A stretch of DNA of 64,000 bases. It comes from a virus (taxonomy: Duplodnaviria; Caudoviricetes). Under the pieces are notes generated by a model, which was given only the letters and a program-made list of their open reading frames with translations, made no database searches and was not told the origin of the DNA. Where the stretch lies: positions 15,785-79,784 of IMG/VR virus record IMGVR_UViG_3300028603_000032, one strand, 5' to 3'. This document shows, piece by piece, positions 2 to 58,419 of the stretch (the first letter of the stretch is position 1; each line of letters opens with the position of its first letter). The position numbers and the translations under genes are program-made.

Positions 2-187
2 AAGTGCTACTTCTTCCATCGCGATGCGATCGGAAGTGCCTTCGATTCCGGTGAGGGCCTGAACACGGCGGTGGGCTACGATGACGAGCAGGACTACTCC
101 TACGCTCGCGCATCGTCGTTCACGGGCGCGAAGCTCCTGCAGCAGAACGGCATCGTGCAGTTCCTGCATGACGCCTCGGCCATCTGA
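2..187 (+). CDS. Major capsid protein, C-terminal fragment (5' end outside window)
   Basis: Frame 2 reads KCYFFHRDAIGSAFDSGEGLNTAVGYDDEQDYSYARASSFTGAKLLQQNGIVQFLHDASAI*, resembling podovirus capsid C-termini; sits directly upstream of the tail module. Confidence 0.7.
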   Translation, partial: KCYFFHRDAIGSAFDSGEGLNTAVGYDDEQDYSYARASSFTGAKLLQQNGIVQFLHDASAI

Positions 188-204
188 GAAAGGAGGACCT
201 AACC

Positions 205-471
205 ATGGCTTACAAGTCTGACAAGCTGAACCTCCAGTCTCAGTCGATCGCGGGTGTCCGGCACTGGTCCTATACGGACACGGGCTCGGCACTTGCTGCC
301 GTGTCTGACGCCGGCTTCTTCTCCGATGGTCGCACCAAGGGGATGAAGGTGGGCGATGTCGTGTTCTTCACGAGCGCCGGCGCCACCCCCACGTCTGACA
401 CCTTCGTCGTCACTGACGTGCAGGCCGACGATACCGGCGGCCAGTACGCCTCTGTCGGCGATACGGGCTGA
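205..471 (+). CDS. Small virion protein (capsid decoration-like), 88 aa
   Basis: Strong RBS AAGGAGGA; follows the capsid gene; 3 DTG motifs. Confidence 0.65.
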   Translation: MAYKSDKLNLQSQSIAGVRHWSYTDTGSALAAVSDAGFFSDGRTKGMKVGDVVFFTSAGATPTSDTFVVTDVQADDTGGQYASVGDTG

Positions 472-489
472 TAGCCTTCACACGAACGG

Positions 490-520
490 GGCCGGCGCGA
501 TTGTCGCCGGCCTTTCTCTT
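490..520 (+). terminator. Rho-independent terminator after capsid operon genes
   Basis: GGCCGGCG-cgattgt-CGCCGGCC followed by TTTCTCTT. Confidence 0.6.
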
Positions 521-543
521 CATCCACAATCTGAGGGAAACTC

Positions 544-5185: not shown

Positions 5186-5776
5186 CTAAGTAAGCCAACC
5201 CCATATTTTTCGCCTCTTTATATCTGATACGGTCCTAGGACTAATTCCGAATTGTCCAGCTATGTTTCTAATGGGAACACCTTGCGAGATCATGTACCTG
5301 ATCATGCATACGTCGTCCTTGCGCAACTTTGATGATGCGACTCGTTCTCCTCTCAGTATGGTGCCATGTCGGAGCGCATCGGCAGAGTTATCTTTGCTCG
5401 TCCCCCAACGTAGGTGTTTGGGGTTCACGCAAGCAAGATGTCCGTTTCCGCAAGTATGTAGAGCTTCGTGCGTAGGCGACGGTGGCGCGCCGTGCGCGAG
5501 TTCGCACATATAACGGTTTGCTCTGAAATGCTTACGGTCGACCCAAAGATCGCCGTATCCCCAACTGCATTTGGCAAATGGCCACAGCAGGCAATCGTTA
5601 CCTTTGTAGGTGGCGTGGGAGATGAGCCAAGCGAGGGGGGCTCCTTTTGGCGTGGCCGTTCGCCCGGCTAGGGGGTCTCCGTATTTGTGCCATTTTGCCC
5701 AGTGCGGGTTACAGTAACTCTTGGCGTAATGCGGCTTGCCACAGCCTTCTACAGAGCATATGCGTTGGGAAGCCAT
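5186..5776 (-). CDS. HNH homing endonuclease (N-terminal Cys-rich motif, HNH core, C-terminal HTH)
   Basis: CSVEGCGKPHYAKSYCNPHW; ALHTCGNGHLACVNPKHLRWGTSKDN HNH motif; antisense within tail operon; lower GC. Confidence 0.85.
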   Translation of the reverse strand: MASQRICSVEGCGKPHYAKSYCNPHWAKWHKYGDPLAGRTATPKGAPLAWLISHATYKGNDCLLWPFAKCSWGYGDLWVDRKHFRANRYMCELAHGAPPSPTHEALHTCGNGHLACVNPKHLRWGTSKDNSADALRHGTILRGERVASSKLRKDDVCMIRYMISQGVPIRNIAGQFGISPRTVSDIKRRKIWGWLT

Positions 5777-9281: not shown

Positions 9282-9426
9282 CGAGCAGGTTGGCGACCAT
9301 CACCGGAACGGTGAACCAGCCCGCCGCCCACTCGCTGAATCCTAGAGCCTGAAAGCCCTGAAGGGCCAGCACTGACGGTGTGATCATCAGCACCGCCAGC
9401 ATGATGTGTTTCACCGAAATTTTCAT
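9196..9426 (-). CDS. Possible small two-TM membrane protein, antisense (76 aa from MKISVKHIML)
   Basis: Two hydrophobic stretches; fills the gap between two ejection genes; overlaps the 3' end of 6819..9281. Confidence 0.3.
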   Translation of the reverse strand: MKISVKHIMLAVLMITPSVLALQGFQALGFSEWAAGWFTVPVMVANLLVIEKVLGWYRQARSQSAPTPHDRTPYRK

Positions 9427-9441
9427 CAGAGCCTGCCACGC

Positions 9442-12400: not shown

Positions 12401-15400
12401 AAATCATTGGCCGCCATCTTGGGTTGCCGGTCGATAGCTCCATCGTGCAGACAGTGCGCGCCCAGCACACGGGCGCCGACGCATTCGCCAGACTGGCACG
12501 TCAGCCTGTGTTCTCCGGTCCTGTCGTCGCGGGCCAGGATTACGTCATCGTCGATGATACCGTCACTATGGGCGGTACATTGGCAAATCTCCGAGGCTAT
12601 ATTGAAAGCCAAGGCGGTCGTGTTATATTAGCGTCCACACTGACAGGTGGACCGCAGCAGAATATCGTCCCATCGGCAGCTCAGCTCGATGCGGTCCGTA
12701 AGAAGCACCCAGATCTTGACGAATGGTGGCAAAATGAATTCGGCTTCCCGCTCGAAACGCTCACGGCCAGCGAGCTTGGTCACCTCAGAAAAGCCGTATC
12801 ACTTGACGCCATCAGAGATCGAATCTCTGCGGCAAGAGGGTCCGAAGATAGACAAGGCGGTGGACGAGTATTACCGCAAGAAGGAGGCGGCGAGGTAGCG
12901 CCGTCTACCAGCACTGGTGACACAGAACCGCCTTCGGGCGGTTTTTCTTTGGCCTCACTGACCGGCCTACCGCGTCTTCCAACGGAACCATCGGCGCCAA
13001 TCGATGCGCTTATCATCACCGCGATAGAGCGCAAGATCGATGCCATGCTCCCGGCTGATGTCGCCACGCGGATCAAGGACAGAATTACCCACCCATCCGG
13101 TGCTGTCCTTAACGCCCAATTCCTCATCGGCAAGCGAATGGTCGAGTTGGGCCTCGTGAATAGCCCGCTCAAGATCTTTCATCTCGGCAAACATGAGGTG
13201 ATCCATGCTCTGCGGATGTCCGGGCTTTTTACGCAGGATGAATGGCAACGGCTCGTCTCCCACGCCAAGAAGATCAACATCGATGAACAGATAACGGCGA
13301 AAGATGCCAACGGCAAGCAGGTACCCGCCATTCCTGGCTACCGGAACCTGTATCGCACGTCCTTTTCTGGAATAGGGCTGAGAGGGAAAGAACTCAACGA
13401 AGTCATCGAGGAGCTTATCGACCAAGAGCGTGTTGCCAAGATGGCGGAGCAATGGGTCGCTCGCGAGGCCAAATTCGGGCGCGCCATAGACCAGATCCTT
13501 GATCGCATCAGTCGATTCATAGAAGCAGCCGCCCGCGCTCTGAACAATCTCGGCATCAGGTCTTTAGATGACTACGTGGAACTGGCGAATGAGCGCGACG
13601 TGCAGCGCATCGCCGAAAGGGTGCTGTCTGGTGAAGTGGGCGGCCGTGCGCGCCCGGATGATCTCGGCCTGCCGATCGGCGTGCAGCAACTGATTGGAGC
13701 CGTGCCTCGTAGCGATGTTGGTCAGATCGTTCCTGCTGCCTCACAGGAAGGCAGAGCAGTGCTGGATGCACTGCTTGCAATCCGCGCGTTTCATGGCAGC
13801 CCGCATGACTTCGACCGCTTTTCAATGGAGAAGATCGGCACGGGTGAGGGTGCTCAGGCGTTCGGCCACGGACTTTACTTTGCCGAGGCAGAGAATGTTG
13901 CGAAAGACTACCAGAGTAAACTTGCGCCTCCTCAAGTCAATACAGGCTATCGCAACATCGATACAGAGCTTTCGAATGTTCATGGGGGTGACTGGGAAGC
14001 ATTCAAGGCGGCCCACCCGAACCCGAGCCCAGGATTGAAAGAGGCAATCGAGGACATCGAGTCGCGCGGCGCGACCGGATCTCAGCAGAAGGGCCGCTTC
14101 TACGAAGTCCGCATCAATGCAGAGCCCGAAGACTTCCTCGATTGGGACGTGCCGATCGCAGAGCAGAGCGAGAAAGTCAGAGCAGCGCTGAGATCCATCG
14201 GCCATCCCGATAACATAAAAACCGAGGAGGATCTGGCGCAACTCTGGCAGCGCAATGTGCGGCTGGCAAACGGTAGAATTCTCGCGTGGTACTTCAGCCC
14301 GCCCCTATCGTCCCCACGTTTTGGATCCGAGGCGCGAGTCTACGAGTCCGGCGGGAAGTGGACAGCGAGCCTTGACATGCCCGGCGGCGGCCTCCGCGAC
14401 TTTGCGACGGAGGCAGAGGCCAAACAGTGGGCCGATGGTATATTACGCCGTAACTTCGGGAGCGGGGATCTCGGCTCTGACGTTGCGCGCCAGCTCACCG
14501 CCCGCGTTTGGCTGTGGAACAGAAAGATCACGGACCCGCGAAAGATCAGCCGGGCGCTGCGGAAAGCCGGGATCAAGGGGATACGCTATCTTGACGGGTT
14601 CTCGCGGCACAAGGGTGAGGGCCATCACAACTATGTCGTCTTCGACGACTCCCTCATCGAGATCACCGCCAAGGACGGCAAGCCTGTATCCAGTCAGGAA
14701 AAGCAGGACTTCGTTGCTGCCTCTCTCGCCAGCGTCCCTTCTCAGCCTCAACCCCGTTCCTTCAACATCGAAGGTTTCAGTGGAACCGTCTCGACTTCAG
14801 AGGATGAGAATGGAAACAGGGTAAGGACGTATCGGGTCAGTGAGGAAGATGTTGGTTCATTCGAGCGTCGAGAGCCCGCTGACGCTGGTTCGGTCAACGT
14901 TCCGTCTTCCGTGGGATTCGCTGTCCTCAAGGAACAGGACGACGGCACATGGTCCGCGTCCATGGTCCGCATCGAGCCGGGCCATCGCAGGCAGGGTGTT
15001 CCCTCACGCCTTCTCCGTGCCATCGAGGAAGACCTTGGCCAGCGTCTCGCTCCACAAGGCTGGCTCACCGCAGAGCAGTACGCAGAGCTTGCCGAAAGCA
15101 ACCCGGATGCCGTCCGGTTCCATCAGCCTGCCGGTCCCGCATTCGACGATATGTGGGTCTCTCCAAAGCAGATGGAGTTCGGCGCGGAGATCCTGAAGGA
15201 GTTCGCCTCACAAGCACCAGATGCAGCATCGGCAAGGGAAGCACTGGATCAGGCACGCCAGCTTGAAGCCATGCGGGCCTTAGTGCCGGCAGAGGCGTTC
15301 GAGCAGGAGCAGGCCATGTTCGCGCTCCGTGGCCTGCCCCATCCCATCAACCTCGGAACTCCATCACGGTCAGGAACCGAAGCCCCAGAGAAAAGCCTGT

Positions 15401-18400
15401 CCGATCTCGTCTCCGATCTGACGGATGCACTAGGTCTCACAGTACGGCACGGCCGACTCAGCCCCGGCCTGAAGGCAGCCGCCGGGCGGCTTGGCATGAG
15501 CGTTGCCGGCCAGTTCTCCCGCGCCACGGGCGTCACCCGCATCGCAATTCCGAATGATCTCGCCACCTTGGCCCACGAAGGCGGCCATGCGCTGGAAACC
15601 CGCAACTCGACACGCGATGACGTGCGCCAGCTTCAGGACGATCACATCGAGGAGTTGATCACCGCACCGTCCCGCAATTTCTCCCCGCCTCAGATGCCGG
15701 CCAGCGGTTTCTCAGGGGTAGAGCTCGACGACGATACCCAGCGCGTCCTGATCGATGCGGTTCAGGCCGACGTGAACCTGCGCGCACAGACATTGCAGGC
15801 CGGCCAGGCTAAGTCCGGCGTCCGCTTCATGCGCGGCAAGATTGACGACGCGGCCTATAAGCAGGCTCAGCGTGAGGCGGGAATGCTCCGGGCCGTGCTG
15901 ATCCGCCGTCTCGGGCAGCGTGTGGCAGATGCCGTTCTCGATGACGTGAAGAAAGCGGCCCCCCGTGACCTGCAGCAGTACATCGCGCAACGGTTCTCAG
16001 CCACGGGAACACCGAAGCCGCGCCCTGCTCCCCCGCAAGCCTCGCGCACGGAGCTGTCCGAAGGCTGGGCCGAGTTCTTCCGGCAGTATGTCACCAATCC
16101 CCGTGAGGCCCGCATTCAGGCTCCTAGGCTCTACGAAGCCTTTGAGGACATGCTGGACGGGGCAGAGCCGGATATGCTGGAGCAGTTGCAAGAGATCCAG
16201 AAGGGCTTCACCGAACTTAAGAACGCCTCTCCTGCCGGTGCGGTGATGAGCCGTGTCCAGTCCTCCGTCAAGCCATCGATGTTCGCGCAGTTCCGCAAGG
16301 ACCTGGCAGAGAAGGGACCACGGGCGACGATCTCCGACAAGCTCTACGGCTTCTATCATGCGGCCGTCGACGGTAGGCATCCCATGAAGCGCGCCGTCAA
16401 GTTCCTGATGGAGCTCGGTGCCGACAATCTCGGTGTGCAGCTCGGCGACAACGAGCGCATGGTGCTCAAGGCGGCCGACGATCCTTACAAGGTCTGGCGT
16501 CTTGCCGAGCACTCCAAGGTCTGGGCCACGGCCACACTGCAGAACGGTGTGCGTCTCAAGGGCGAGGCGGAGCCGTCCGGGCCATCCTTTCACGAGGCTT
16601 TGTCGGAAGCCTTCGGCGGCACCGCCAAGGGCCAGTGGAATGACGAGAAAGCGCAGACGTTCGGTTCCTATCTGGTCGCCCGGCGCATGCTTGCGGAATG
16701 GAAGCGTTACGAGAACGGGGAACTGGAGAACCCGCCGGACAGCCTGATCGAAAAGCGCGTCTGGCAGAAGGCGCGTCAGGACATCGAGAAGGCGCATCCC
16801 GAGTTCGCCAAGGCCGCCCAACTCCTCTACGGCTTCAACAAGCGCCACCTGCAGAACAAGTTCCTCAACGGCTTCCTTACCGAGGATCTGTTCCTTGAGC
16901 TGAACGCGCGCGAGGACTACGTGCCTCTCAACCGCATGATGGACGATGACGGCCCATCAGCCTTGACGAAGCCGCGCGGCCAGAACAAGCGCAAGCTGAT
17001 CTATCGGTTCAAGGGCTCGACGCGGGATTTCATCAACCCGCTCGAAAGCATCGCGCAGGACGTTTATGCAACGCAGGCACGGTTCGCGCTGAACGACGTG
17101 ATCGGCGCCATGGACCGGCTGTCCCGCGCAGTTGGGCCGGGTGGCGGCGTGATTGCCGAGCGTATCCCGCCCAACGACATGCGCGGCACGCGGGTGGACA
17201 TCCGTGAGGCCATGCGCCAGGCGGCGCGTGATCTCGACCCGAACGACGCGCAAGGTCTGATCGAGATGATCGACGACCTGTTCGATCAGGATGCGGCAGC
17301 GACGATCTTCCGTGCGGTTCCAACCGAAGAGAAGGGCGAGCCAATCGTCTACCTGTGGGAGGAGGGCAAGCGGGTTCCGATCCGTCTCGGAGATAATCGC
17401 ATCGCGCGGGACATCTTCGAGACCATGGTGGCGCTGGGGCGTGATAACTCGGACATCGTTACTGATATCTTCTCCTATGGCGCTCAGGCGTTCCGCTTCG
17501 GCGTCACGAAGGCAACATCGTATATCGCGGTCAACTTCATTCGGGATCAGGTTGCCACCTGGATTCTATCGCGCGACTACGTGCCGCTTGTGTCTGGTGC
17601 GAAGGGTTTATGGGGCATAAACAGGGGTGGCACGATAGGTGCTGTGACAGGAGCGGCGCTCGGCACCGGGGTCGGCGTAGCGACCGGCGGCATCGGGTTC
17701 GCCGCCATTCCCATTGGCACCATCTTCGGAATGAGTCTGGGCTCCCGCCTCATCGGAAAACATGCGAAGGATCTTGCACGGTACAACGCCTTCGCTGGGC
17801 TAGCCGGTGTCGAGTCCGGGCTGATCGATTCGCCTTCCACTGACAGGGATATACTGGCGCTCAGGCGAACTGGCTTTCTAGGTGTTCCGTCCAGAGGACG
17901 CTTCATCGGCACTTGGCAGCGCATTCTGCGTGCGGCTGAGGTGACTGAGGCGGCAAGCAGGCTAGGGCATTTCAAGGCAGCCTACGATCGCGCTCTCAAG
18001 GACGGGTTCACGCCGGAGGAGGCGGCAATCGAAGCTGCCTATGCCGCCCACGACGTTCTTGATTTTAGCCGGAAGGGCGCGAAGATGGGTCAAGTTGCGC
18101 GCATCATGGCGTTCACCAACTCTGCGCTTCAAGGTCTCGATGCCGCGTTCAGAACAGCAACAGGCGAGCGGAATATATATCGAAACTACCGCGAAGCTTT
18201 GACGCCATTCATCAAGTCGGCCAATGGCTCCCCGTTGTCAATCGCAGAGAAGGAGGCTCTGCCCAATTCAGTCCGCATGTGGATCAAGATGGTCGCTATC
18301 GGCCTTATGGGAGTGGCGCTGTTTGCACTTGATGACGATGACGAGACTAATGATTACATGCGGGCAACGCATTGGTTCTTCAATCTGTTCGGGATACGGG

Positions 18401-19581
18401 TCAGAATACCTAAGCCGTTCGAGCTTGGTATCTTCTCCAACATTTTTGAGTCTGCGTTCGCCTATTGGTGGCGGCAGGATGAGCGCGCACATATCCGCTT
18501 CCTGGAGAGTTTGAGGCACACTGTCGTGCCGCCTGCAGAGATCCAGGCACTCTATTCGCTAGGTCATATCGCAGCTATCCCCTCGGTGATATGGGAACAT
18601 CTGGTCGCGCAGGACCCATTCAAGAAGCCATTCGACAGTGACATACCTCAGCACTTGAGGGCACTACCCCCGGAACTCCAGTTTAATGCCTACACGTCGG
18701 AGTTCAGCAAGTTGCTCGGGAACGTGATGGGGTGGAGCCCGGCGCAGATTGACAACTTCATCGCTAACACATTTGCCACTCTCGGAAGAGAGTTCTTGAC
18801 CGGATCGGACTATGCTCTTCCCCGCATCAATCAACTGGTCGGCGGACGGTTACCAGGGGTTTCGGTTTCACCAAGAGCAGAGAAGCCGATAGAGGACTAT
18901 TGGTTCATCTCCCGCTTCACGCGCCGTCAGTCCCGTGGTGCCCTTTCCACCCAATACTTCTGGCAACAGATGTCCATGGACGGCGGCAAGTACGTGCAGG
19001 CGGCCAACGGATATCGTGAGCTGCTGCGGGCCGGGAACGAGGTCGGGGCCAAGGATCTCCTCGACGGGCTCGACCAGGAGCGCCGGGCCTATGCCTTGCT
19101 CGAAGGCCACTTCAAGGAGAAGGATCAGGACATCCACCCGATGAACCGGGCGCGTCAGGTGATCGGCGCCATGTCCGGCATCCGCCGCGAAATGGTTCTC
19201 GACCGGCTCGTCAAGCAGTCCACCGCCAACAAGAAGCACACCGAGCCGGAGAAGATCGCGCTCGAACCGTCGAAGCAGAAGATCGTCAACGAGATCCTGG
19301 AAGACATCGCCATGCGCGAGGCAAGGAACGCCCTCGTCGTGGTGCAGCATCCGGGCTGGAAGAACAAGTCCATCCTGCCGACGGACGGCCTTCTGGCAGA
19401 GTTGAGAGCCGCGGTTCCCGAAGTCGCAGATGAATTGGACTACCGGCTGAACAAGGGCCGGTACAAGGTCTACCCGTTCGAAGGCGTTCGCCGGGCCTGG
19501 CCCAAGGCGCGTGATGTCCTGCTGAAGGAAGGCCAAGACGCCATCCTTGCAGAGTTCAGGACCGAAGCCAGGTTCCCCTGA
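9442..19581 (+). CDS. Giant polyvalent internal virion protein (~3,380 aa): PRTase, HExxH, ART-like, GNAT, zincin, LPD38-like domains
   Basis: YVIVDDTVTMGGT (PRTase, ~12540); HEVIH (~13190); AFHGSPHDF...GEGAQAFGHGLYFAE (~13790); HRRQGVPSRLL (GNAT, ~14980); LAHEGGHALE plus ELSEGWAEF (~15570, ~16050); RIPKPFELG (~18400). Confidence 0.8.
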   Translation: MDDQLLNDLRSLGEEPEAVDPGLTGLLPQQEEPVGTSNTAREVAPLIDRLAEQRRREREREEQEAELRSRDGALDALMDPQQYVEGVKGIIPGAIRSGGLVLQAPDVFASRAQHNAARFGRQQIELMDRIDRGEDVSEVDDAMGYRQMSPAQRLQAREQLTKAQRSFAPTPIQERSLFRAGEDVQEFAKGVAPAAPGYEESVGRQLGEGLGSMAVGLPASFIGPMPAAVVFGAMGVGEAADRAVQWDRKEREAGRPGLTQDQIALAGILGTAPGATDMLPLEVMVGRLPIPMPKWMRGAVARGIGRIGGQAFIEGVQEGGQAFLQNLIAREVYDSNQPLVDGLGSEAAIGGGVGAIAQTAKELGSWIIRSAAGRRTRSTEPSRRDEPTPETPRDSVVDLDQFADPIEEEGERPVDEAPLGPLAPDVRGQQGEEGELAASMVQDRLSDEARDYLNEAYSTIGLEPETDLSTVPASELRQIASYLREVQQDIRTESGRYTPGRDELNPPDPAITELLRGINAELRRDAAAQRRQPQLPLDETAAEAAPTEQAAPQSVPQTQSRGRLGTRLEDLAQRDFRAAEAVDSVRGAGARPDVSSEGFSSPTFDQISSVLPPDANGDPDFGRLNARMQAEFGKTGWNNLTPDEKVQLYRTFGGEPAPATQEAPESVTEAGVSPEVVPPAKTAEAAPEPTVGQESAISDDTRQAFREILAGKAPRRQWAEQLGVDEGQLQSLIDEAASEGLVRVDRNGVVRRTARAKVAATAAQPTPRPTQAPRPAAPAQARPSLTIPSDIRLRNSIDARERITGKPLNAIVLDYAGRIEEARGTDAFDGIMAEIRADRLFLKADAHDLAALAGYPVTKSATKKAALETVEKRHRDLAEGLNQKLLPDLAALSMSQAPPQVSRTFWGGFPSVETLLPRHALRNHNPELYDKAKAGDHAAAAQLVDEVVRDEAIERLRATIGDRQPVIVAVMAEEASGRNAIPRTFAKIIGRHLGLPVDSSIVQTVRAQHTGADAFARLARQPVFSGPVVAGQDYVIVDDTVTMGGTLANLRGYIESQGGRVILASTLTGGPQQNIVPSAAQLDAVRKKHPDLDEWWQNEFGFPLETLTASELGHLRKAVSLDAIRDRISAARGSEDRQGGGRVLPQEGGGEVAPSTSTGDTEPPSGGFSLASLTGLPRLPTEPSAPIDALIITAIERKIDAMLPADVATRIKDRITHPSGAVLNAQFLIGKRMVELGLVNSPLKIFHLGKHEVIHALRMSGLFTQDEWQRLVSHAKKINIDEQITAKDANGKQVPAIPGYRNLYRTSFSGIGLRGKELNEVIEELIDQERVAKMAEQWVAREAKFGRAIDQILDRISRFIEAAARALNNLGIRSLDDYVELANERDVQRIAERVLSGEVGGRARPDDLGLPIGVQQLIGAVPRSDVGQIVPAASQEGRAVLDALLAIRAFHGSPHDFDRFSMEKIGTGEGAQAFGHGLYFAEAENVAKDYQSKLAPPQVNTGYRNIDTELSNVHGGDWEAFKAAHPNPSPGLKEAIEDIESRGATGSQQKGRFYEVRINAEPEDFLDWDVPIAEQSEKVRAALRSIGHPDNIKTEEDLAQLWQRNVRLANGRILAWYFSPPLSSPRFGSEARVYESGGKWTASLDMPGGGLRDFATEAEAKQWADGILRRNFGSGDLGSDVARQLTARVWLWNRKITDPRKISRALRKAGIKGIRYLDGFSRHKGEGHHNYVVFDDSLIEITAKDGKPVSSQEKQDFVAASLASVPSQPQPRSFNIEGFSGTVSTSEDENGNRVRTYRVSEEDVGSFERREPADAGSVNVPSSVGFAVLKEQDDGTWSASMVRIEPGHRRQGVPSRLLRAIEEDLGQRLAPQGWLTAEQYAELAESNPDAVRFHQPAGPAFDDMWVSPKQMEFGAEILKEFASQAPDAASAREALDQARQLEAMRALVPAEAFEQEQAMFALRGLPHPINLGTPSRSGTEAPEKSLSDLVSDLTDALGLTVRHGRLSPGLKAAAGRLGMSVAGQFSRATGVTRIAIPNDLATLAHEGGHALETRNSTRDDVRQLQDDHIEELITAPSRNFSPPQMPASGFSGVELDDDTQRVLIDAVQADVNLRAQTLQAGQAKSGVRFMRGKIDDAAYKQAQREAGMLRAVLIRRLGQRVADAVLDDVKKAAPRDLQQYIAQRFSATGTPKPRPAPPQASRTELSEGWAEFFRQYVTNPREARIQAPRLYEAFEDMLDGAEPDMLEQLQEIQKGFTELKNASPAGAVMSRVQSSVKPSMFAQFRKDLAEKGPRATISDKLYGFYHAAVDGRHPMKRAVKFLMELGADNLGVQLGDNERMVLKAADDPYKVWRLAEHSKVWATATLQNGVRLKGEAEPSGPSFHEALSEAFGGTAKGQWNDEKAQTFGSYLVARRMLAEWKRYENGELENPPDSLIEKRVWQKARQDIEKAHPEFAKAAQLLYGFNKRHLQNKFLNGFLTEDLFLELNAREDYVPLNRMMDDDGPSALTKPRGQNKRKLIYRFKGSTRDFINPLESIAQDVYATQARFALNDVIGAMDRLSRAVGPGGGVIAERIPPNDMRGTRVDIREAMRQAARDLDPNDAQGLIEMIDDLFDQDAAATIFRAVPTEEKGEPIVYLWEEGKRVPIRLGDNRIARDIFETMVALGRDNSDIVTDIFSYGAQAFRFGVTKATSYIAVNFIRDQVATWILSRDYVPLVSGAKGLWGINRGGTIGAVTGAALGTGVGVATGGIGFAAIPIGTIFGMSLGSRLIGKHAKDLARYNAFAGLAGVESGLIDSPSTDRDILALRRTGFLGVPSRGRFIGTWQRILRAAEVTEAASRLGHFKAAYDRALKDGFTPEEAAIEAAYAAHDVLDFSRKGAKMGQVARIMAFTNSALQGLDAAFRTATGERNIYRNYREALTPFIKSANGSPLSIAEKEALPNSVRMWIKMVAIGLMGVALFALDDDDETNDYMRATHWFFNLFGIRVRIPKPFELGIFSNIFESAFAYWWRQDERAHIRFLESLRHTVVPPAEIQALYSLGHIAAIPSVIWEHLVAQDPFKKPFDSDIPQHLRALPPELQFNAYTSEFSKLLGNVMGWSPAQIDNFIANTFATLGREFLTGSDYALPRINQLVGGRLPGVSVSPRAEKPIEDYWFISRFTRRQSRGALSTQYFWQQMSMDGGKYVQAANGYRELLRAGNEVGAKDLLDGLDQERRAYALLEGHFKEKDQDIHPMNRARQVIGAMSGIRREMVLDRLVKQSTANKKHTEPEKIALEPSKQKIVNEILEDIAMREARNALVVVQHPGWKNKSILPTDGLLAELRAAVPEVADELDYRLNKGRYKVYPFEGVRRAWPKARDVLLKEGQDAILAEFRTEARFP

Positions 19582-22718: not shown

Positions 22719-24137
22719 TTAGCGTGTAACTCGACGCTCGATAAACTTTCTCGTTGGTGTGGAATCTGCTTCGCGTTGCATGCGTGCGTACTCGTCGTCT
22801 TCGGCATGGCAGACCTCCCACTCGATGTGGTGGAACACGTAATGACAGTTGCCGCAGCCAGGATCGAGACCTTCCAGAACCTTGACGTGGCCATGCTCGT
22901 CGGGCGGGCAGGTGATGACTGGCGCGCGGAAACTGCCTTCGGGGTACTCCCCCTTGCAGTACGGGCATTGGCGCAGCTTGCCAGACTCCATCAACAGCAC
23001 CTTGGCGCGGATGGTGCCGAACGAGTAGCCGCGGCCGGCACGGTTGGCGATCTTGGTCAGCCCGTTGACGGCCTCGGTATAGGCATTCGTCACCGGGTAA
23101 TCGAAGAATGCGAATATCTCGCTGCGCCAGTTCTCGACCATGTTGGCGACAGGCCGGAACTCGGTCTCGATGCGTTCGTCGATCTTCCTTGCCCAAGCGT
23201 CGAAGCGCTTCTCAGCCACGGCACGGCTCTTGGCGGCGAAGATGTCGTAAAACCGCTCTTTGGCGTGCCAAGCAGCATCGAGCAGTGGGTTATTGCCGAT
23301 TAGCCCGTCGAGCATCATGCGGCGCATCGGAGAGAGGCGGTGGCGGCTGGTTTGCAGCAGGAGCTTACCTTGCCTAGGGTTACGCCGAGGGGTCTTGCTG
23401 GCCTTCCTGGCGCGATTGCGCACCCTATCCAACGCGAAGTTCGCCTTGCTCAGGACGTGCCACTTGTCGATCACGATCTGGGCACCGGGTAGCAAGGCGC
23501 GGGCGGCATTCTTGTATGGCCCCCACATATCGATCGCGACGATCTTAATGCTCTCGCGCTTGGGCAGATGCAGCAGCCAGCGCTCAACGCGGCGCCGGTC
23601 CATGCTGTCGATGATGTCAAGCGGGCGGCGGGCGCCAATGTCAACGAAGATGGTGCGCTTGCGGCCCAGAAGCGTCAACTCGTCGATACCGAGCATCAAT
23701 GGCGCCTCGATCTTGCGCTCGGCAATACGCCGTTCCATGGCCTCGTTGCAGATGTTGCGGATCGTCTTCTCGTTGCAGCCGATGTGACGGGAGAGTGCCG
23801 CATAGGTCTGCGGGACGCCCTGTTCTTCAATGTACCGCACGCACCGCTTGGTCATCTGGCGCCGCGAATCCATGTCAGGCAGCGGCTGCATGGACGTGGC
23901 GTTGCACTCTCGACATCTGTAGCGCTGCACCTCGGCGATAATGACCACCTGCTTGCCGAATGCTGGGGCGTCCCGGTACTCGATGGTCTTGGTGCCGTGT
24001 CGGTACAGGCGCCCGACGCAGCCGCACTTGGGGCAAGTGTCAAGCAATCTTTGACAGTTCGCTTTCGCCTCGCGAACATCGCCGACGATGCGCATTTCGC
24101 GCACGTCCCATCCGTCCAGCCAGAGACCGTTGGTCAT
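22719..24137 (-). CDS. ISL3-family transposase
   Basis: zf CPKCG...CRECN; GIDE, AIDM, IDKWHV, TNAYTEAVN DDE motifs. Confidence 0.92.
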   Translation of the reverse strand: MTNGLWLDGWDVREMRIVGDVREAKANCQRLLDTCPKCGCVGRLYRHGTKTIEYRDAPAFGKQVVIIAEVQRYRCRECNATSMQPLPDMDSRRQMTKRCVRYIEEQGVPQTYAALSRHIGCNEKTIRNICNEAMERRIAERKIEAPLMLGIDELTLLGRKRTIFVDIGARRPLDIIDSMDRRRVERWLLHLPKRESIKIVAIDMWGPYKNAARALLPGAQIVIDKWHVLSKANFALDRVRNRARKASKTPRRNPRQGKLLLQTSRHRLSPMRRMMLDGLIGNNPLLDAAWHAKERFYDIFAAKSRAVAEKRFDAWARKIDERIETEFRPVANMVENWRSEIFAFFDYPVTNAYTEAVNGLTKIANRAGRGYSFGTIRAKVLLMESGKLRQCPYCKGEYPEGSFRAPVITCPPDEHGHVKVLEGLDPGCGNCHYVFHHIEWEVCHAEDDEYARMQREADSTPTRKFIERRVTR

Positions 24138-47287: not shown

Positions 47288-47692
47288 GTGATGGGACTAC
47301 TCGACGATACGATATCCAGAAATTTTTCCGCGATGGAAATGGTAAGCCTGCTCCGTGATGTCCAGGGCAACAACCCGGATAGGCACCCGCTGGGCTTCGT
47401 GTGTTCGTTCGTGCCACCGGAAAGGCCGCCGCTGGACGAGGAGCAGGATGCACCCAACGGGAAGGATGTTGCGTGGGCAGTCTGGCAGAAGACCTACGGG
47501 TCGTGCTCCTACTGTGGTGAGCCTACCAATCCATTCAACAGAACGGCCGCGAATGGATTTCAAATCGACCACATGATCCCACGCGCTCATGGCGGGTCAG
47601 ATGACATCGACAATCTCGTGCCGTCTTGCAGGCGATGCAACAATTCTAAGCTAGCCCGAACGCCTGATCAGTGGGGGGGACGCCATGTCTAA
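47288..47692 (+). CDS. HNH endonuclease
   Basis: CSYCG...QIDHMIPRAHGGSDDIDNLVPSCRRCNNSK. Confidence 0.88.
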   Translation: MMGLLDDTISRNFSAMEMVSLLRDVQGNNPDRHPLGFVCSFVPPERPPLDEEQDAPNGKDVAWAVWQKTYGSCSYCGEPTNPFNRTAANGFQIDHMIPRAHGGSDDIDNLVPSCRRCNNSKLARTPDQWGGRHV

Positions 47693-48698
47693 CACGGCTC
47701 CTATCGGGCATAACGGCGGGCCTGAATTAGACGAGGAAGTCACCTTCCCAGATCGAGAAGGCTTCATCGCCGTTGCCCGCAGCATGCGCGATCACTGGCT
47801 GGTCGGGTTCGGGTCTGAGGGCCGCTTCTCGAAGGCCGAAGCCTGGCAGGACCTCATCATGGAATGCCGGTACGAGCCCGGCAAGATCATGAACGGCGGC
47901 AAGCCAATGCTTCTGAAGCCTGGGCAGCTCGTAGGGGCCGTTTCCTATCTGGCCAGCCGCTGGAACTGGACGCCAAAGGCCGTTCGGATCTTCCTCGATA
48001 AGCTCGAAGCAGAATGTATGATCACCCTCGATTACGGAACTTATGTTGATCCTGAGCACACTCCAAAACAGGGCACCAACTCGGGCAAACACAAGGGCAA
48101 ACAGGCCAAGGTACTAACAGTCTGTAAATACGACATTTATCAGCTTGGGTGGAGGGCGCAAGGGCAAATAAAAGGGCAATCAGAAGGGCAAATGAACGGC
48201 AAACAAGGGGCAAATGAAGGGCAACAATCTAAGAAAGGAAGAAAGGAAGAAGGGAACAAGGAAGAGGATATTCCGCCTAACGGCGGTGATGCCATTGAGG
48301 GAAATGACGATGCAACTCCTGAGCACGTTCAGGCCGAAGGCATCCAGGCTCTCGAAGCCTTCCGCGCCTACAACGACCTTGCCCAGCGGATCGGCTTGCC
48401 AACGGCCCGCACGCTTACGCCGCAGCGCCGGAAGAACCTTTGTGCCCGCCTTCGTGAGCACGGCGGCATGGATGCTTGGCAGACAGCCCTCGCCAACATC
48501 GAGCGATCAGCCTTCCTGCGCGGGAACAACAACCGCGGCTGGCGTGCCGATTTCGATTTTCTTGTGACCGCATCGAGGTTCGCCAAGGTCGTCGATGGCG
48601 TCTACGGCAACGGCGCGCACGCCGATGAGCCGAAGGAAAGCACTGCCGAACGGTTGTCTCGAATGCTCGGGGAAATGGATCTGGAGAAACGTACGTGA
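47685..48698 (+). CDS. Phage replication initiator protein
   Basis: N-terminal wHTH (AWQDLIM...GQLVGAVSYLASRWNW); C-terminal GWRADFDFL...VDGVY; iteron-like AAGGGCAA repeats inside the gene (~48100-48225). Confidence 0.75.
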   Translation: MSNTAPIGHNGGPELDEEVTFPDREGFIAVARSMRDHWLVGFGSEGRFSKAEAWQDLIMECRYEPGKIMNGGKPMLLKPGQLVGAVSYLASRWNWTPKAVRIFLDKLEAECMITLDYGTYVDPEHTPKQGTNSGKHKGKQAKVLTVCKYDIYQLGWRAQGQIKGQSEGQMNGKQGANEGQQSKKGRKEEGNKEEDIPPNGGDAIEGNDDATPEHVQAEGIQALEAFRAYNDLAQRIGLPTARTLTPQRRKNLCARLREHGGMDAWQTALANIERSAFLRGNNNRGWRADFDFLVTASRFAKVVDGVYGNGAHADEPKESTAERLSRMLGEMDLEKRT

Positions 48699-52592: not shown

Positions 52593-53879
52593 ATGACTCT
52601 CAAAACACTCACTGCTGCGTCGGTGGCAGCGATGCTGATGGCATCGCCTGCACTGGCGGCTGATATGAATGGCGTAGGCGGAAATTGCTGCGCCGACCTA
52701 GAGGAAAGGGTTGCTGAGCTTGAGGCTACGGCGGCTCGTAAGGACAATCGGAAGGTTAGCCTGACCGTTTACGGACAGGTCAACTATGGTATCTTGTCAG
52801 TGGATGTCGATCCTCCATTCGAGGGAGCAAAGGGCTTTAGCGAAACCACCATCACAGGGAATAGCAACAGCCAGAGCCGATTTGGCTTCAAGGGGGACGC
52901 GACTATCACCCCTGACTGGTCGGCTGGTTTCTTGATGGAGATCGGTGTTGGCGAGACAGAGCCGATGTTCACCGAGGGCGTCGGTCCTGATGGCATCCTA
53001 GGTGATGGTCTCGTTATCCGCCACTCGGCCCTCTACCTAAAGCATAACCAACTTGGAACCGTATGGCTCGGCAAAACCTCGTCTGCAACGGATGGTATCG
53101 CTGAGATCGCCATCGCCAACACAGCCGTAGCGAGCACCTTGCTCAGCCTTGAACCAGTGTCTGGCGCTTGGCTCGGTGGCATCAACCTTCCATTCGACGG
53201 CGGGCGCACTGAGGTCGTGAAGTGGGTATCTCCCACGGTTGGCGGCTTCACTGCATCTGCCGCTTGGATGGGGAACGATGATGAAGCCTGGGACGCTGCG
53301 CTGAGGTATGCGGGTGAGCTCGGCGGGTTCCAGTTCGCGGCTGGTGTCGGGTATCGGAAGGAAACGAGTCCGTTCTCGACGTGGCTGAATTGGAAAGAGA
53401 TGAGTGATGAGGTCGAAACCATCACTGGCTCCGCGTCCGTCAAGCATGTGGCATCTGGTCTGTTCGTTAATGCCGCCGCCGGCAAGGTGGATGGCATGGC
53501 GGGCAATGGGGTGTTGTTCTCTAGCTGGTTCTTCGGCGATGTTCCCTTCCATTTCGTCGACCCAAAAGCGCTCCATGTGCAGGCAGGCGTAGAACAGAAC
53601 TTCTTTGGCTTCGGCAACACAACACTCTTCGGAGAATGGGCTAGGGCTGAAAGCAGGGTGGTCGATAGCTTTTGGTGCCCTGATCCTGACGAGTATTCGA
53701 AGGGTGAGTTGGATTTTTGGGGCCTCGGCGTGGTCCAGGCGATTGATGCCGCCGCCATGGATCTGTACGTCAGCTATCGCAAGTACGACCTTTCGGAGAA
53801 AAGTGGCAGCGGCGATGAGATCGAGAGCAGCAGCACAGACGCAAGCGCAATCGTGGCTGGTGCAATCATAAGGTTCTAG
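52593..53879 (+). CDS. Outer-membrane porin (alphaproteobacterial, Hyphomicrobium-type)
   Basis: Signal peptide; CCADLEERVAELEATAARKDNRKVSLTVYGQVN; SRFGFKG; alternating beta strands; terminal Phe (GAIIRF). Confidence 0.88.
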   Translation: MTLKTLTAASVAAMLMASPALAADMNGVGGNCCADLEERVAELEATAARKDNRKVSLTVYGQVNYGILSVDVDPPFEGAKGFSETTITGNSNSQSRFGFKGDATITPDWSAGFLMEIGVGETEPMFTEGVGPDGILGDGLVIRHSALYLKHNQLGTVWLGKTSSATDGIAEIAIANTAVASTLLSLEPVSGAWLGGINLPFDGGRTEVVKWVSPTVGGFTASAAWMGNDDEAWDAALRYAGELGGFQFAAGVGYRKETSPFSTWLNWKEMSDEVETITGSASVKHVASGLFVNAAAGKVDGMAGNGVLFSSWFFGDVPFHFVDPKALHVQAGVEQNFFGFGNTTLFGEWARAESRVVDSFWCPDPDEYSKGELDFWGLGVVQAIDAAAMDLYVSYRKYDLSEKSGSGDEIESSSTDASAIVAGAIIRF

Positions 53880-54776: not shown

Positions 54777-55215
54777 CTCAGGTCTGATCGCCATCACCAA
54801 GGCTATCTACAGGATCGACAAATCTCGATTAAGCTATGGCTTGCTGGGTGGATTGTACGATTACGGCGCAGATTGGGATAACGACGTGTTCATGATGCAC
54901 CCTGCCTGCGGATGTGAATCTACCGCCTGCCCTTGGTGCGCCGAGTGCCACTGCACGGATGATTTTGATTGCCCGAGTTGTTCGCCATCGCACCGCTGGC
55001 CGGAGAAAGGCGCTCTACCCGCGCGTGAGCCGTTCGAGCTGAGCTCGGAGTGGGGGCGCGCTCCTAATTTCTGGCACAAGCCTTCGGGTATGCGGGTGTG
55101 GTGGCACAAGTCGATCGGCAGAGGAATGGAAGTCAGGAGCGCAGATGGCGCTGGTCTGAACGACGTGTTTGCAGAGTGTCTCGCATCACTGAAGCAGGAC
55201 GGCAAGAAATCCTGA
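54754..55215 (+). CDS. Hypothetical Cys-rich protein
   Basis: CGCES..CPWC..CHC...CPSC; PNFWHKPSG. Confidence 0.55.
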   Translation: MMEIDAINSGLIAITKAIYRIDKSRLSYGLLGGLYDYGADWDNDVFMMHPACGCESTACPWCAECHCTDDFDCPSCSPSHRWPEKGALPAREPFELSSEWGRAPNFWHKPSGMRVWWHKSIGRGMEVRSADGAGLNDVFAECLASLKQDGKKS

Positions 55216-55875
55216 ATGTCCACTCCCCTCCAAAAGCAGCGCCAGCGAGAAGCCGCCGAGCTAGAGAAGGCCGCCAGGAAGAAGGGCAAGCGCCTTCCCG
55301 GCCCTCCGCCTCCTGATCTGGACGTGAGGCTCGCTCAGGTGGCTCGTCTCGTGGCTCCCATTCTTCACGCCAATGCGTCGATCCGGGGTCCAAACGCCCC
55401 GACAGATCCCGTTGTTGAAACACATCGGTTCGTATCTATCGTCGATCTTATGGCGACGAACAAGTTGGTCCCCGCCGAGCTCGCAGCGGCAGCCGACAAG
55501 TTCAAGGAACTCTACCTGAAATCTATCGGCCCCAGCAGGGGGGTTGCCGGTTATGGCGAGTTCTTTCAGGCATCTCCTGCGTCACAGAGAATGCCGACAA
55601 ACCAGAGCATGATGGACGCCTCGAAGGAGTTTGCGGCAGCGATTAAGGCGACATGCTGGGTAGAGACGAATGAAGGGAAATGGGTTCCTGATAAGGAGCT
55701 AATGCGGGCCGTCCTGCCGGCAGTCCTCTTTGATACGAAGGGGATGTCTCAAGCGGACATCGGGAGATTGAGAACTCGTTACACGGGACGCGCGCAAGTT
55801 GGGGCGGCAGGGGGCACTGTTCTTATCGAATGGCTGACCCGATTGTGTTTCCATTTCCAATATCGGTGTGATTAA
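55216..55875 (+). CDS. Hypothetical protein (possible late transcription regulator)
   Basis: Position at end of early operon; C-terminal HTH-like segment; function not recognised. Confidence 0.5.
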   Translation: MSTPLQKQRQREAAELEKAARKKGKRLPGPPPPDLDVRLAQVARLVAPILHANASIRGPNAPTDPVVETHRFVSIVDLMATNKLVPAELAAAADKFKELYLKSIGPSRGVAGYGEFFQASPASQRMPTNQSMMDASKEFAAAIKATCWVETNEGKWVPDKELMRAVLPAVLFDTKGMSQADIGRLRTRYTGRAQVGAAGGTVLIEWLTRLCFHFQYRCD

Positions 55876-55905
55876 GTTTTGCGCGTGCAATTGGCACTCT
55901 AGGAG

Positions 55906-55934
55906 TTGAGAAAAAGAATTGGTTTGTGTATATT
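55906..55934 (+). promoter_or_regulatory. sigma70 promoter for array/RAMP locus
   Basis: TTGAGA(55906)-17 bp-TATATT(55929); predicted +1 about 55941, at the first array unit. Confidence 0.75.
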
Positions 55935-55939
55935 GGAAT

Positions 55940-56064
55940 TGCGTCGCTCCGTAGCGCAGTTACTCGCGCAGCTTCGCGCCGCAGTGCTTCGCTCCGCAGC
56001 GTGCCGCCACGCATTGCTTCGCTCCGCGCCGCAACGCTTCGCACCGCATCGCAACTTAGCGCAA
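55940..56064 (+). repeat. Pentamer array 1, (CGC-NN)x25; candidate guide RNA
   Basis: Unbroken 5-nt phase; 17 of 25 units begin with CGC, most others TGC/CGT. Confidence 0.85.
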
Positions 56065-56077
56065 CGAGGATTATTCG

Positions 56078-56674
56078 ATGACCAGAACTCTAGTCGCAAA
56101 CTTAGTTGGTATCAGTCCTTACAGCCAATCTCGCGCTCACGATGAGCCGAAGATTGATGACAAGGAATCGCATGATGCCTATGACCGCCGCACATGGCGC
56201 AGCAAGGCTCATGTCGATGCGGACACCGGACAAGTCGTCATCCCAGCTATGGGGTTGAAACTGGCAATCGCCGAGGCTGCCAGGAGGCTCGCAATCAAGA
56301 TCCCCGGAAAGCGTGGGGCGACTTACACGAAGAATGTGTTGTCTGGTGTTCTCGTCGTGGCAGATATGCCGCTGGGCATCACCCGAGACGATTTACGGGA
56401 AGAGGTTGTTTTCGCGAACGCCGATGGCAAGCGTGGATCAGGCACGCGGGTATTTCGCCGATTCCCAATGGTTCCGACGGGATGGAAGGCAACCGCAGAG
56501 ATCCATCTCATTGACAGTGAAATACCCGAGGAAGTTGTCGAGCGCTGCTTGCGCGAGGCCGGTAACTTGATCGGGATCGGCAGGTTCAGGCCGCAGAATG
56601 GCGGGTACCTAGGACGCTTCGAAGTGACGGCGATGAAGTGGAACAAGACAGCACCCCAAAGGCTTGCGGCTTAG
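56078..56674 (+). CDS. RAMP/Cas7-like RNA-binding protein (198 aa)
   Basis: N-terminal strand LVGISPY; VVIPAMGLKLAIAEAA helix; RRFPMVPTGWKAT; C-terminal Gly-rich loop GIGRFRPQNGGYLGRFEV characteristic of RAMP/Cas7 RRM folds. Confidence 0.75.
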   Translation: MTRTLVANLVGISPYSQSRAHDEPKIDDKESHDAYDRRTWRSKAHVDADTGQVVIPAMGLKLAIAEAARRLAIKIPGKRGATYTKNVLSGVLVVADMPLGITRDDLREEVVFANADGKRGSGTRVFRRFPMVPTGWKATAEIHLIDSEIPEEVVERCLREAGNLIGIGRFRPQNGGYLGRFEVTAMKWNKTAPQRLAA

Positions 56675-56687
56675 AAGCATATGTCTG

Positions 56688-56760
56688 CGCTGCGCTACTC
56701 TCCGCCCCGCTACGCTGCACCCGGCACCGCCCCGCTTCGCCTTGCTTCGCAACTCAACGT
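56688..56760 (+). repeat. Pentamer array 2, (CGC-NN)x~15; candidate guide RNA
   Basis: Unbroken phase; 9 of 15 CGC; ends CGCAA-CTCAA-CG. Confidence 0.8.
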
Positions 56761-56775
56761 CTCCTGTAGGCATTG

Positions 56776-56819
56776 GCGGTGGCGTGAAAGACAGATTTTC
56801 TGTCTTTCATTCAGCCGCC
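56776..56819 (+). other. Hairpin separating arrays 2 and 3
   Basis: TGAAAGACAGA-TTT-TCTGTCTTTCA perfect 11-bp stem, extended by GGCGG/CCGCC. Confidence 0.75.
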
Positions 56820-56825
56820 GAGGAT

Positions 56826-56915
56826 CGCTGCGCATCTCTGCGCCGTGCTGCGCTGCGCGACGCGGTGCCACTTAACGCCACGTGCCGCACCGCTCCTTGA
56901 CGCAACTCAACGCAA
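56826..56915 (+). repeat. Pentamer array 3, (CGC-NN)x18; candidate guide RNA
   Basis: Unbroken phase; 11 of 18 CGC; ends CGCAA-CTCAA-CGCAA-CG. Confidence 0.85.
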
Positions 56916-56941
56916 CGACCAATAGAAAGGAACTGAAAGTA

Positions 56942-57451
56942 ATGGCATTCCCAAATGGTCATAACAAAGGTCCGAGCTGGCGAGAAGCTATAGACGCCCG
57001 CAAGGCCATGCTCCGCAACGTGGTTGAAGGTGAGACGCTCACATATCCCGAGATGACGAAAATTCTCGGGGTGAAGATCACCGGTGGTGGCGAGAACGAA
57101 TTACAGGTTGCTCTCCGTGAGCTGCACAAGGAAGGCATCGCGTTCACAAATGTGTCCGGTGAAGGGTACACTCGCCTTGATCCGACGAAATCGGTTGTCG
57201 TCAAGGGGAACGGTTTCAGGTTGAAGGCTCGTCGGGTAACAAAGCGCGGCCTAACCCTTCTGAACAATATCGACGATAGTGCCGTGGACCGATCATCTCG
57301 GCCGAACAAGTGGGCTCTTGTCGCATTGTTGGAGACGATAAAGAGAACGACACACGGGAACAGTGTCAACGCATCGGTGAAGAAGATGTCAATGGCGGAA
57401 GAGGAGAAGAACAGGTTAAAGCGGCAGTTATCTGGGGAGATCATTGGCTGA
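56942..57451 (+). CDS. Putative winged-helix DNA-binding protein associated with the RAMP locus
   Basis: RBS AAAGGA; GETLTYPEMTKILG...LQVALRELHKEGIAFTNVSGEGYTRL wHTH-like pattern; basic. Confidence 0.55.
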   Translation: MAFPNGHNKGPSWREAIDARKAMLRNVVEGETLTYPEMTKILGVKITGGGENELQVALRELHKEGIAFTNVSGEGYTRLDPTKSVVVKGNGFRLKARRVTKRGLTLLNNIDDSAVDRSSRPNKWALVALLETIKRTTHGNSVNASVKKMSMAEEEKNRLKRQLSGEIIG

Positions 57452-57561
57452 TTTTTCTGAAGCCGTGCCAGATGCGGATAGAACGAATGGCCCGTTCTCA
57501 TTCTAGTCGCGCTACCAGTTACTGATCCCGAAGAAAAACGCCAGCTCAAGGAGATGCTGGA

Positions 57562-57681
57562 ATGACCGCCCAAGAATGGCATCAGTTCTTCTGGCTCGTC
57601 ATTTACGGCCCTATGATGATGCTTATCTTTGGGGGTATTCTGGTGTTACTTGACTGGCTTCTGTTCATCAGAGGGGAATGA
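57562..57681 (+). CDS. Small membrane peptide
   Basis: MTAQEWHQFFWLVIYGPMMMLIFGGILVLLDWLLFIRGE; read manually. Confidence 0.4.
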   Translation: MTAQEWHQFFWLVIYGPMMMLIFGGILVLLDWLLFIRGE

Positions 57682-58155
57682 GTCAGAATGTCGCAGTGTT
57701 TTACTGTTGCTGAGATATGGGATCTTTGGTAAGGGCTTAATTCGCTACTGCTCAGAATTACGGGCCGCGCCGGAAAAACTGGCAGCGGCCTTTGTGTTTC
57801 CAGCCCGCCATCACAGTCCAATGCGCTCCACCGGCATGCGTGCAAACCGGGCGATCACGGACGTGGTGGAGGCTGGTTCCAATTCAAGGCTTGCTCCCAT
57901 GCAGTACGCCGACTCCCTCGCCAACGTAGCTCTGCAAAACTCCATTGGTGGACTGCTTCTGATGGCCCTTGGCGGTATACTGCTTCTCGTTCTGTGGGCT
58001 GCAAAATGAATTACCCTGCACCGCCTCCTAGCGGGTCAGCCGCCGGGTCCGACTAACGAGAAAGACGCGATCCGGTTCGGTGCAGGGCCGCGCTATGCGG
58101 GGTCATCGTCAACGGTAAATCGCGTCATCGGCGGCACTAATTCTGAGGGCGTAAG

Positions 58156-58419
58156 ATGAACTCGCACTGCAGGATCGGCAAGGTCGTCCTGAAAAGCCGC
58201 TTGCCCGACAACGTGGTATTTCTCAGAGACACGACGAGCGATCATGTCCCGCCATTTCGGGTCTTGGGTGGTGCCCTTGAGAAGGACCTGCAGGAGGTGC
58301 TCGTGCTCGGCATCGATAAGGACGGCAGGGATTACTTCGCTGGATCATTCGCGGATATGTTCGAGGTGGTGCTGATCCTCGACAGGTTTCGTAGGAACGC
58401 TATGGGGCTAGGATCATGA
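58156..58419 (+). CDS. Hypothetical protein
   Basis: RBS GAGGG; VLVLGIDKDGRDYFA motif. Confidence 0.55.
   Translation: MNSHCRIGKVVLKSRLPDNVVFLRDTTSDHVPPFRVLGGALEKDLQEVLVLGIDKDGRDYFAGSFADMFEVVLILDRFRRNAMGLGS

Follow-up and report, generated by a model that had tools for sequence, protein, structure and literature searches.

Why should a small gene in a virus of the Caudoviricetes be surrounded by arrays of five-nucleotide units? The question is raised by the region 55906-57451 of a 64,000-nt stretch (positions 15,785 to 79,784) of the virus record IMGVR_UViG_3300028603_000032, called the window below, in which three + strand arrays of 5-nt units, each unit consisting of CGC and two variable bases, flank a gene for a 198-aa protein. 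An original prediction, made from the letters of the window, took the locus for an RNA-guided system with a RAMP/Cas7-like protein and related it to phage systems of a type called VIPR. Our analyses indicate that it is very probably a VIPR system with CGC-type guides, carried by a complete, integrase-bearing phage of 79.8 kb and likely operating in the manner set out below.

The systems that the prediction named are real and have been published. VIPR (Viral Interference Programmable Repeat), reported for the first time in 2026, silences DNA under the guidance of RNA and is related to CRISPR; according to the founding preprint it acts on competing phages and satellites and comes in seven types with varied vap accessory genes (bioRxiv 10.64898/2026.04.26.720920). 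As described there and in a companion study, the stand-alone RAMP protein Vipr polymerises on guides called vrRNAs, made of GGY-NN units, with one protomer per unit; it buries the GGY and offers the NN to double-stranded DNA, of which every third base is skipped (10.64898/2026.04.26.720920; 10.64898/2026.04.26.720927). Structures of the Vipr-vrRNA complex of SUSP1 have it bound to double-stranded DNA as a triplex (10.64898/2026.04.26.720927; PDB 36pp).

Three arrays of pentameric units

With periodicity scored as any three conserved columns in an eight-unit pentamer frame, no trinucleotide being preset, 162 window positions reached at least 20 of 24 points. All 162 fall within 55935-56075, 56670-56765 and 56810-56925, against 0-2 positions at that level in each of ten shuffles that preserved the composition. 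CGC recurring in phase in at least five of ten units is confined, across the 64-kb window, to the three arrays and to the + strand. The prediction had counted 25, 15 and 18 units in phase: there are indeed three arrays, but their lengths are 26, 17 and 19 units once the constant 3' units are included. None of them breaks phase internally, although the three have no phase in common. The columns of array 1 read C in 21, G in 24 and C in 21 of the 26 units, followed by two variable columns, and over the three arrays the fixed bases are conserved at 81-89% (C), 71-92% (G) and 79-88% (C), a pattern other than the canonical GGY. All three arrays end alike, in cgcAA ctYAR cgNNN, with no pseudoknot-type tail apparent. 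That the arrays are repeats within a coding sequence was rejected, since five is no multiple of three and the open reading frames (ORFs) running across them are artefacts.

The order of the elements is compatible with expression as a unit. The sigma-70-like promoter TTGAGA-17-TATATT at 55906..55934 (+), which the prediction had placed at the head of the locus, is the best match in 55000-58200 (10 of 12 positions), and its predicted +1, at about 55941, falls in the first unit of array 1. That array (vrRNA 1; 55940..56069, +), made up of about 22 variable units and the constant 3' units cgcAA cttAG cgcAA cgaGG, would serve as the 5' leader of the 198-aa gene, vipr, and extends as far as the ribosome-binding site, as had been claimed, its last unit overlapping the GAGGA. 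Array 2 (vrRNA 2; 56683..56767, +) starts 9 nt past the vipr stop codon, with about 13 variable units and the tail cgcAA ctcAA cgtCT, and array 3 (vrRNA 3; 56826..56920, +) has 15 variable units and the tail cgcAA ctcAA cgcAA cgaCC. Read antisense, vrRNA 3 gives S-[DE]-V-A-[CW]-[FL]-[CW]-P-S-[HQ]-[HQ]-R-[HQ]-[IM]-[HQ].

Arrays 2 and 3 are separated by a hairpin at 56774..56820 (+), in which GGCGG/CCGCC closes a 12-bp stem (dG -33.2 kcal/mol, z -4.6); none of 200 shuffles was equally stable, and array 2 alone among the arrays of the window has a hairpin after it. As no U-run follows, we regard it as a probable processing or boundary element. Rfam returned only sub-threshold, miRNA-like matches for the hairpin, and no hammerhead ribozyme was found. 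Since there are no other promoter-like sites on the + strand between 56674 and 56940, and hence none before arrays 2 and 3, the simplest reading is that all three arrays would be made as one transcript and processed later. As a separate observation, the block tgcTT cgcTC occurs twice within array 1, at 55985-56030.

The protein and its relatives in VIPR and CRISPR systems

By profile and by fold, vipr (56078..56674, +) is predicted to encode a RAMP/Cas7-like protein of 198 aa, with an RRM core, a thumb at about residues 107-132 and the G-loop GIGRFRPQNGGYLGRF at 166-181; the glycine-rich motif (residues 166-183) is present as predicted, although it lies close to the C-terminus and not at it. 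The RAMP/Cas7 assignment itself is borne out from two sides. A family profile of 38 homologs matches the 'SUSP1 Vipr protein' of PDB 36pp (36pp_D) with an E-value of 2.5e-8 over the thumb and the G-loop, placing thumb on thumb and GIGRFRP...GRF on GVGDWRP...GRF, and an AlphaFold2 (AF2) model (pLDDT 92.8) has as its best PDB matches in Foldseek the type VII Cas7 8yhe_J (E 1.3e-9) and Csm3 chains (E 1e-8 to 1e-6), with TM scores of 0.5-0.6. Homology and model together support a Vipr homolog with a Cas7/Csm3 fold. Among PHROGs the protein matches phrog_4652, a family listed as of unknown function; Pfam and PADLOC gave no match, nor did tblastn of Vipr against 50,697 GenBank phages. Metagenomes hold 766 homologs, the closest being 84-86% identical and located on short contigs.

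Directly downstream, at 56942..57451 (+), lies a gene for a 169-aa protein, for which the prediction of a winged-helix-like product agrees with the AF2 model: an N-terminal winged helix (residues 13-79) and three long helices (pLDDT 91.7). Its Foldseek matches to GntR, MarR and ScpB winged-helix proteins are weak but consistent (E ~0.01, probability 0.9-0.99), and the family profile touches MGMT and the sigma-4 helix-turn-helix. The family evolves fast, and 92 of 105 loci have a member directly after vipr; by its place and the DNA-interaction-type fold of its model, we class the gene as a vap-type accessory gene.

The resemblance to the type II VIPR of SUSP1 and a Pseudomonas fulva prophage extends over the whole locus. 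In both, a RAMP protein that stands alone and is about 200 aa long combines an RRM core with thumb and G-loop; 5-nt units of three fixed and two variable bases lie on the flanks of its gene and run into a constant or, in the window, apparently constant 3' end; and there is a DNA-binding-type accessory gene. Both are phage-encoded, with no cas genes or CRISPR array and no self-targets. They differ in the fixed bases, CGC in the window against GGY in SUSP1, and in the G-loop, GIGRFRP against GVGDWRP, where an Arg of the window protein replaces the Asp that contacts G1 in SUSP1. Unlike those of the type II system, the arrays of the window end in a short run of AA-units with no apparent pseudoknot tail, are interleaved with the genes as mRNA leaders and have a hairpin parting adjacent arrays.

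The CGC scaffold is best seen as a variant and not as grounds for exclusion from VIPR, since the founding paper allows, in its methods, 'a related consensus' of NNNGG, YNNNG or NNNNG units (10.64898/2026.04.26.720920); CGC-NN, read as C-NN-CG, fits YNNNG. A later preprint lists 21 clusters with non-canonical fixed trinucleotides, such as GAC/NN, CAC/NN, WGT/NN and TGH/NN (10.64898/2026.10.21.760802). As in the window, their arrays are pentamers with a non-GGY trinucleotide beside Vipr-like folds, and the CAC and GAC types of that preprint have counterparts among our related loci, within the protein family of the window itself. CGC is not named as a fixed trinucleotide in the available text of the VIPR preprints. 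The locus is more aptly placed within the published family, whose papers already note non-GGY units (YNNNG; GAC/NN, CAC/NN), than set apart as a related new system; the original prediction was right about the scaffold, and its choice of family is supported.

The type VII Cas7 and the type III-A Csm3 resemble Vipr in binding guide RNA periodically through thumb and G-loop, and VIPR has been proposed as the ancestor of the CRISPR RAMPs. The backbone subunits of class 1 CRISPR systems, in contrast, go with CRISPR repeats, Cas6, Cas10 and a period of 6, whereas the window has none of these cas genes and a period of 5. In scans of seven ORFs (vipr, vap and neighbours) against PADLOC and nine against Pfam, the locus and its surroundings to about 3 kb yielded neither a CRISPR array nor a Cas family, a defence family or a nuclease domain, in line with the prediction that CRISPR repeats, Cas6 and a nuclease are absent. 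A class 1 CRISPR-Cas system is recognised by a repeat-spacer array and a cas operon; here there are no such repeats and no Cas families in the scanned ORFs.

Related loci and turnover of the arrays

If the arrays belong to the gene, they should accompany its homologs, and the prediction had named their 5-nt periodic flanks as a check. We compared 80 viral and 24 genomic loci, with proteins 36-56% identical to the window Vipr, and found same-strand pentamer arrays abutting the gene in 101 of the 104. Those upstream end a median of 25 nt before the vipr start codon, and those downstream begin a median of 12 nt after the stop codon. Whatever the scaffold, the NN of the final 2-3 units is AA in about 60% of arrays family-wide, and 15 of 40 inter-array spacers in the related loci fold with z of -2 or below.

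How the arrays change can be seen in four loci that share one vipr gene, with no difference over its 567 nt: their first arrays have 19, 19, 23 and 32 units and their second arrays 21, 16, 16 and 13. Units have been duplicated, lost, replaced and shuffled among them, with phase, fixed bases and AA-tail kept. The arrays show a fast, unit-wise, guide-like turnover.

Two further features of the related loci deserve mention. In L046, L047, L048 and L052, the arrays from 571 nt after the vipr start contain repeated blocks of 3-4 units, for example ggcCG ggcTG ggcTC ggcGC twice; such internal repeats suggest that long arrays grow by unequal recombination, or else that their guides are directed at targets which are themselves repeated. 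Arrays on both strands are clearly present in just one of the related loci, L059, where GAG units upstream on the + strand, equivalent to CTC read on the - strand, are joined by downstream units of CTC (2771-2907 and 4079-5311).

Candidate targets of the guides

What the guides might read can be approached without knowing a single target. The variable dinucleotides of 251 distinct arrays, 2550 in all, have a composition that follows codon positions 1-2 in reverse complement (r 0.74; bootstrap confidence interval 0.59-0.85) and not in the sense reading (0.05), and regression identifies an apparent fit to positions 2-3 as a by-product. This target-free statistic fits a target read, as published, with a period of 3 nt and the skip falling on wobble positions, and suggests an antisense bias of the guides that, as far as the available text of the VIPR preprints goes, is unpublished and is not reported for SUSP1.

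Searches for actual targets gave a single candidate. In the phage's own genome, the guides match only the arrays themselves at skips of 0-3; self-targets are thus absent, as has been published for VIPR. All 273 guides, searched against all fetched loci with 6-unit seeds, gave no excess over shuffled guides under any skip rule, the database being too small. Exact 10-unit seeds with a 1-nt skip, two each from vr1 and vr3 and one from vr2, had no matches in IMG/VR, and vr3 at full length with at most three mismatches had none in 401 genomes of a related prophage host's order. A metagenome scan with units 6-15 of vr1 produced one match (L106), which we discarded as chance, its flanks matching at 25%. 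Two 8-unit seeds gave 24 matches in IMG/VR, of which 23 are chance and one extends: in contig L123, 25 of 30 positions agree with vr3, antisense and with the skipped base at the wobble position, in a gene for a 159-aa endonuclease (phrog_2340, E 3e-39). The site lies on the most conserved, catalytic motif of the enzyme, LDVVWLCPSHHREVH, and no gene for a phrog_2340-type endonuclease was found in the window phage.

Two comparisons bear on this match. Six homologous genes of other genomes were compared, and in five of them the site in the locus that vr3 fits best is again the endonuclease motif, at 16-20 of 30 positions; the best of 120 members of the endonuclease family has 12 of 15 residue classes matched by vr3. 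LDVVWL is spelled by a guide of L022, a further CGC locus, with a score that shuffled guides reach in 7 of 200 trials. The sequence evidence is suggestive of vr3 being aimed at an endonuclease gene of phages, at its catalytic motif, and with it of a candidate class of natural targets. Contig L123 also carries a second, distinct endonuclease gene 1.5 kb away, the two lying at 18-539 (-) and 2107-2586 (-) with matches to phrog_2340 and to phrog_1872/phrog_59 HNH, and a weak match to a Q-like antiterminator falls between them.

Possible scaffold switching within the subfamily

The related loci differ in their dominant fixed trinucleotide, which is CGC in 47, GGC in 28, CAC in 10, CTC in five, GTC in three and GAC in two, and a few protein positions appear to change with it. 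Residue 114, at the thumb base, is Pro in all 33 G-first loci and Asn or His in 58 of the 62 C-first ones, with Ser in one; the three C-first loci with Pro are all CTC. The same split is seen at residue 127, Lys with G-first and Arg with C-first units. Residue 169, in the G-loop and aligned to the D177 that contacts G1 in SUSP1, is Arg everywhere but in three separate CAC lineages, which have Gln. In three cases (L015, L102 and L077/66/43) the scaffold has switched within the other clade and residue 114 has switched too. In a phylogeny-aware covariation test each independent pair went in the expected direction, but with only 2-4 such pairs (p 0.5) no significance can be claimed, and the apparent switching of scaffold with residue is a lead, not a result. 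Neither scaffold switches within one protein subfamily nor residues changing along with them are reported in the available text of the VIPR preprints.

It is possible, if rather doubtful, that the trinucleotide has been re-coded repeatedly, set by a few protein positions, and that the guides are antisense-biased and perhaps aimed at codons of catalytic motifs. Should the residues read the scaffold directly, mutually orthogonal VIPR systems could evolve, immune to the decoy vrRNAs of rivals, and engineers could build orthogonal ones; the series of scaffolds at about 45-55% protein identity offers material for finding the scaffold-reading residues and for designing such systems. Should the guides aim at catalytic-motif codons, synonymous escape would be impossible.

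Proposed mechanism and alternative explanations

How would such a locus work? Transcription, processing, filament assembly, the rule of skipping 1 nt, the DNA target and silencing can be extrapolated from the published SUSP1 work. One promoter would probably give a transcript with the order vrRNA 1, vipr, vrRNA 2, hairpin, vrRNA 3, vap. Vipr protomers would bind one to each 5-nt unit, burying the fixed C-G-C and exposing the two variable bases, and the exposed dinucleotides would read a DNA target with every third base skipped, so that genes on rival mobile elements would be silenced, possibly with help from the winged-helix Vap. Guide 3 would probably read, in antisense and with the wobble base skipped, the catalytic-motif codons of the phrog_2340 endonuclease that its own phage lacks, for which the evidence is suggestive.

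Several points weigh against this reading. Sequence alignment to SUSP1 Vipr is confined to the C-terminal 85 residues, and the N-terminal half-profile has no Vipr match in the PDB, which leaves a proposed equivalence of residue 20 and SUSP1 H17 unproven. The mechanism was solved for GGY units, so the skip rule could differ in the CGC clade, and as the 22 variable units of array 1 exceed the published 9-16, that array may be more than one guide. Taken singly, the guides of the window show little codon signal (+4.9 bits for vr1, about zero for vr2 and vr3). The match in L123 came after 24 seed matches and has a corrected p of about 0.05 by its extension alone; IMG/VR seeds, one metagenome scan and the 401 genomes together yielded no target for vr1 or vr2 and no match of at least 90% for vr3.

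The antisense bias raises the alternative that fares best, namely that in this clade the same Vipr-vrRNA machine acts on mRNA, by antisense binding or a block of translation, and not on double-stranded DNA. The family-wide NN composition fits the antisense codon reading only, and the sole candidate target is antisense to the coding strand; in SUSP1 both strands carry published targets (10.64898/2026.04.26.720920), so that pure DNA binding would not lead one to expect a strand bias. The bias could nevertheless also arise on DNA if binding of the non-template strand blocks transcription better, and the composition signal might stem partly from neighbouring-base context. With the solved relative binding double-stranded DNA as a triplex and the partner gene encoding a winged helix of the DNA-binding type, we consider action on mRNA improbable.

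Still less probable is that the main role of the arrays is in cis, with Vipr using them, as leaders of the two mRNAs (vipr and vap), to control its own translation and that of Vap, with no targets in trans. The closeness of the arrays to the next start codon, with the last unit of array 1 lying over the ribosome-binding site, is what one would expect of such leaders, and two of the three guides have no trans target found. Autoregulation alone needs no hypervariable dinucleotides, several arrays or turnover of units beside identical genes, and it leaves the codon-like composition unexplained; a cis role could, in any case, coexist with guide function. That the arrays are iteron-like binding sites in DNA for the winged-helix protein or Vipr, and not RNA genes, is hardly credible: a DNA-binding-type protein is encoded beside most of them, but nearly all of the 273 vipr-strand arrays read C- or G-first on that strand only, although a DNA site requires no particular strand; an iteron is conserved throughout, where here three of five positions are kept; and the protein has a homolog whose structure was solved on an RNA of this type.

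A VIPR system with CGC-type guides leaves the basic picture of VIPR unchanged, and for annotation the locus can be entered as a VIPR system. As the class is only months old, each well-described natural variant helps to define its rules.

Other features of the phage

The window lies within a complete virus record of 79,784 bp with terminal repeats, and the phage has genes for tail proteins, lysozyme, endolysin, a 3391-aa polyvalent protein, an integrase, replication proteins and the small terminase. A 428-aa ORF at 52593-53879 (+) has no Pfam or PHROG match and one match, at 35%, among 401 alphaproteobacterial genomes. At 22719-24137 (-) a transposase gene (phrog_5749, E 2e-111) stands inside the phage genome and, by its sequence, looks like an insertion sequence within the complete record. 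Tandem repeats of 11 and 22 nt (AAGGGCAAATG, ~5.7 copies), followed by repeats of 8 nt, occupy 48160-48265, inside the replication-initiator gene 47685-48698, and are probably origin iterons. The 3391-aa ORF, at 9406-19581 (+) between the tail and lysis genes, has an LPD38 domain and a sub-threshold ART-PolyVal match, on which we class it as a putative 'polyvalent' giant virion or injected protein.

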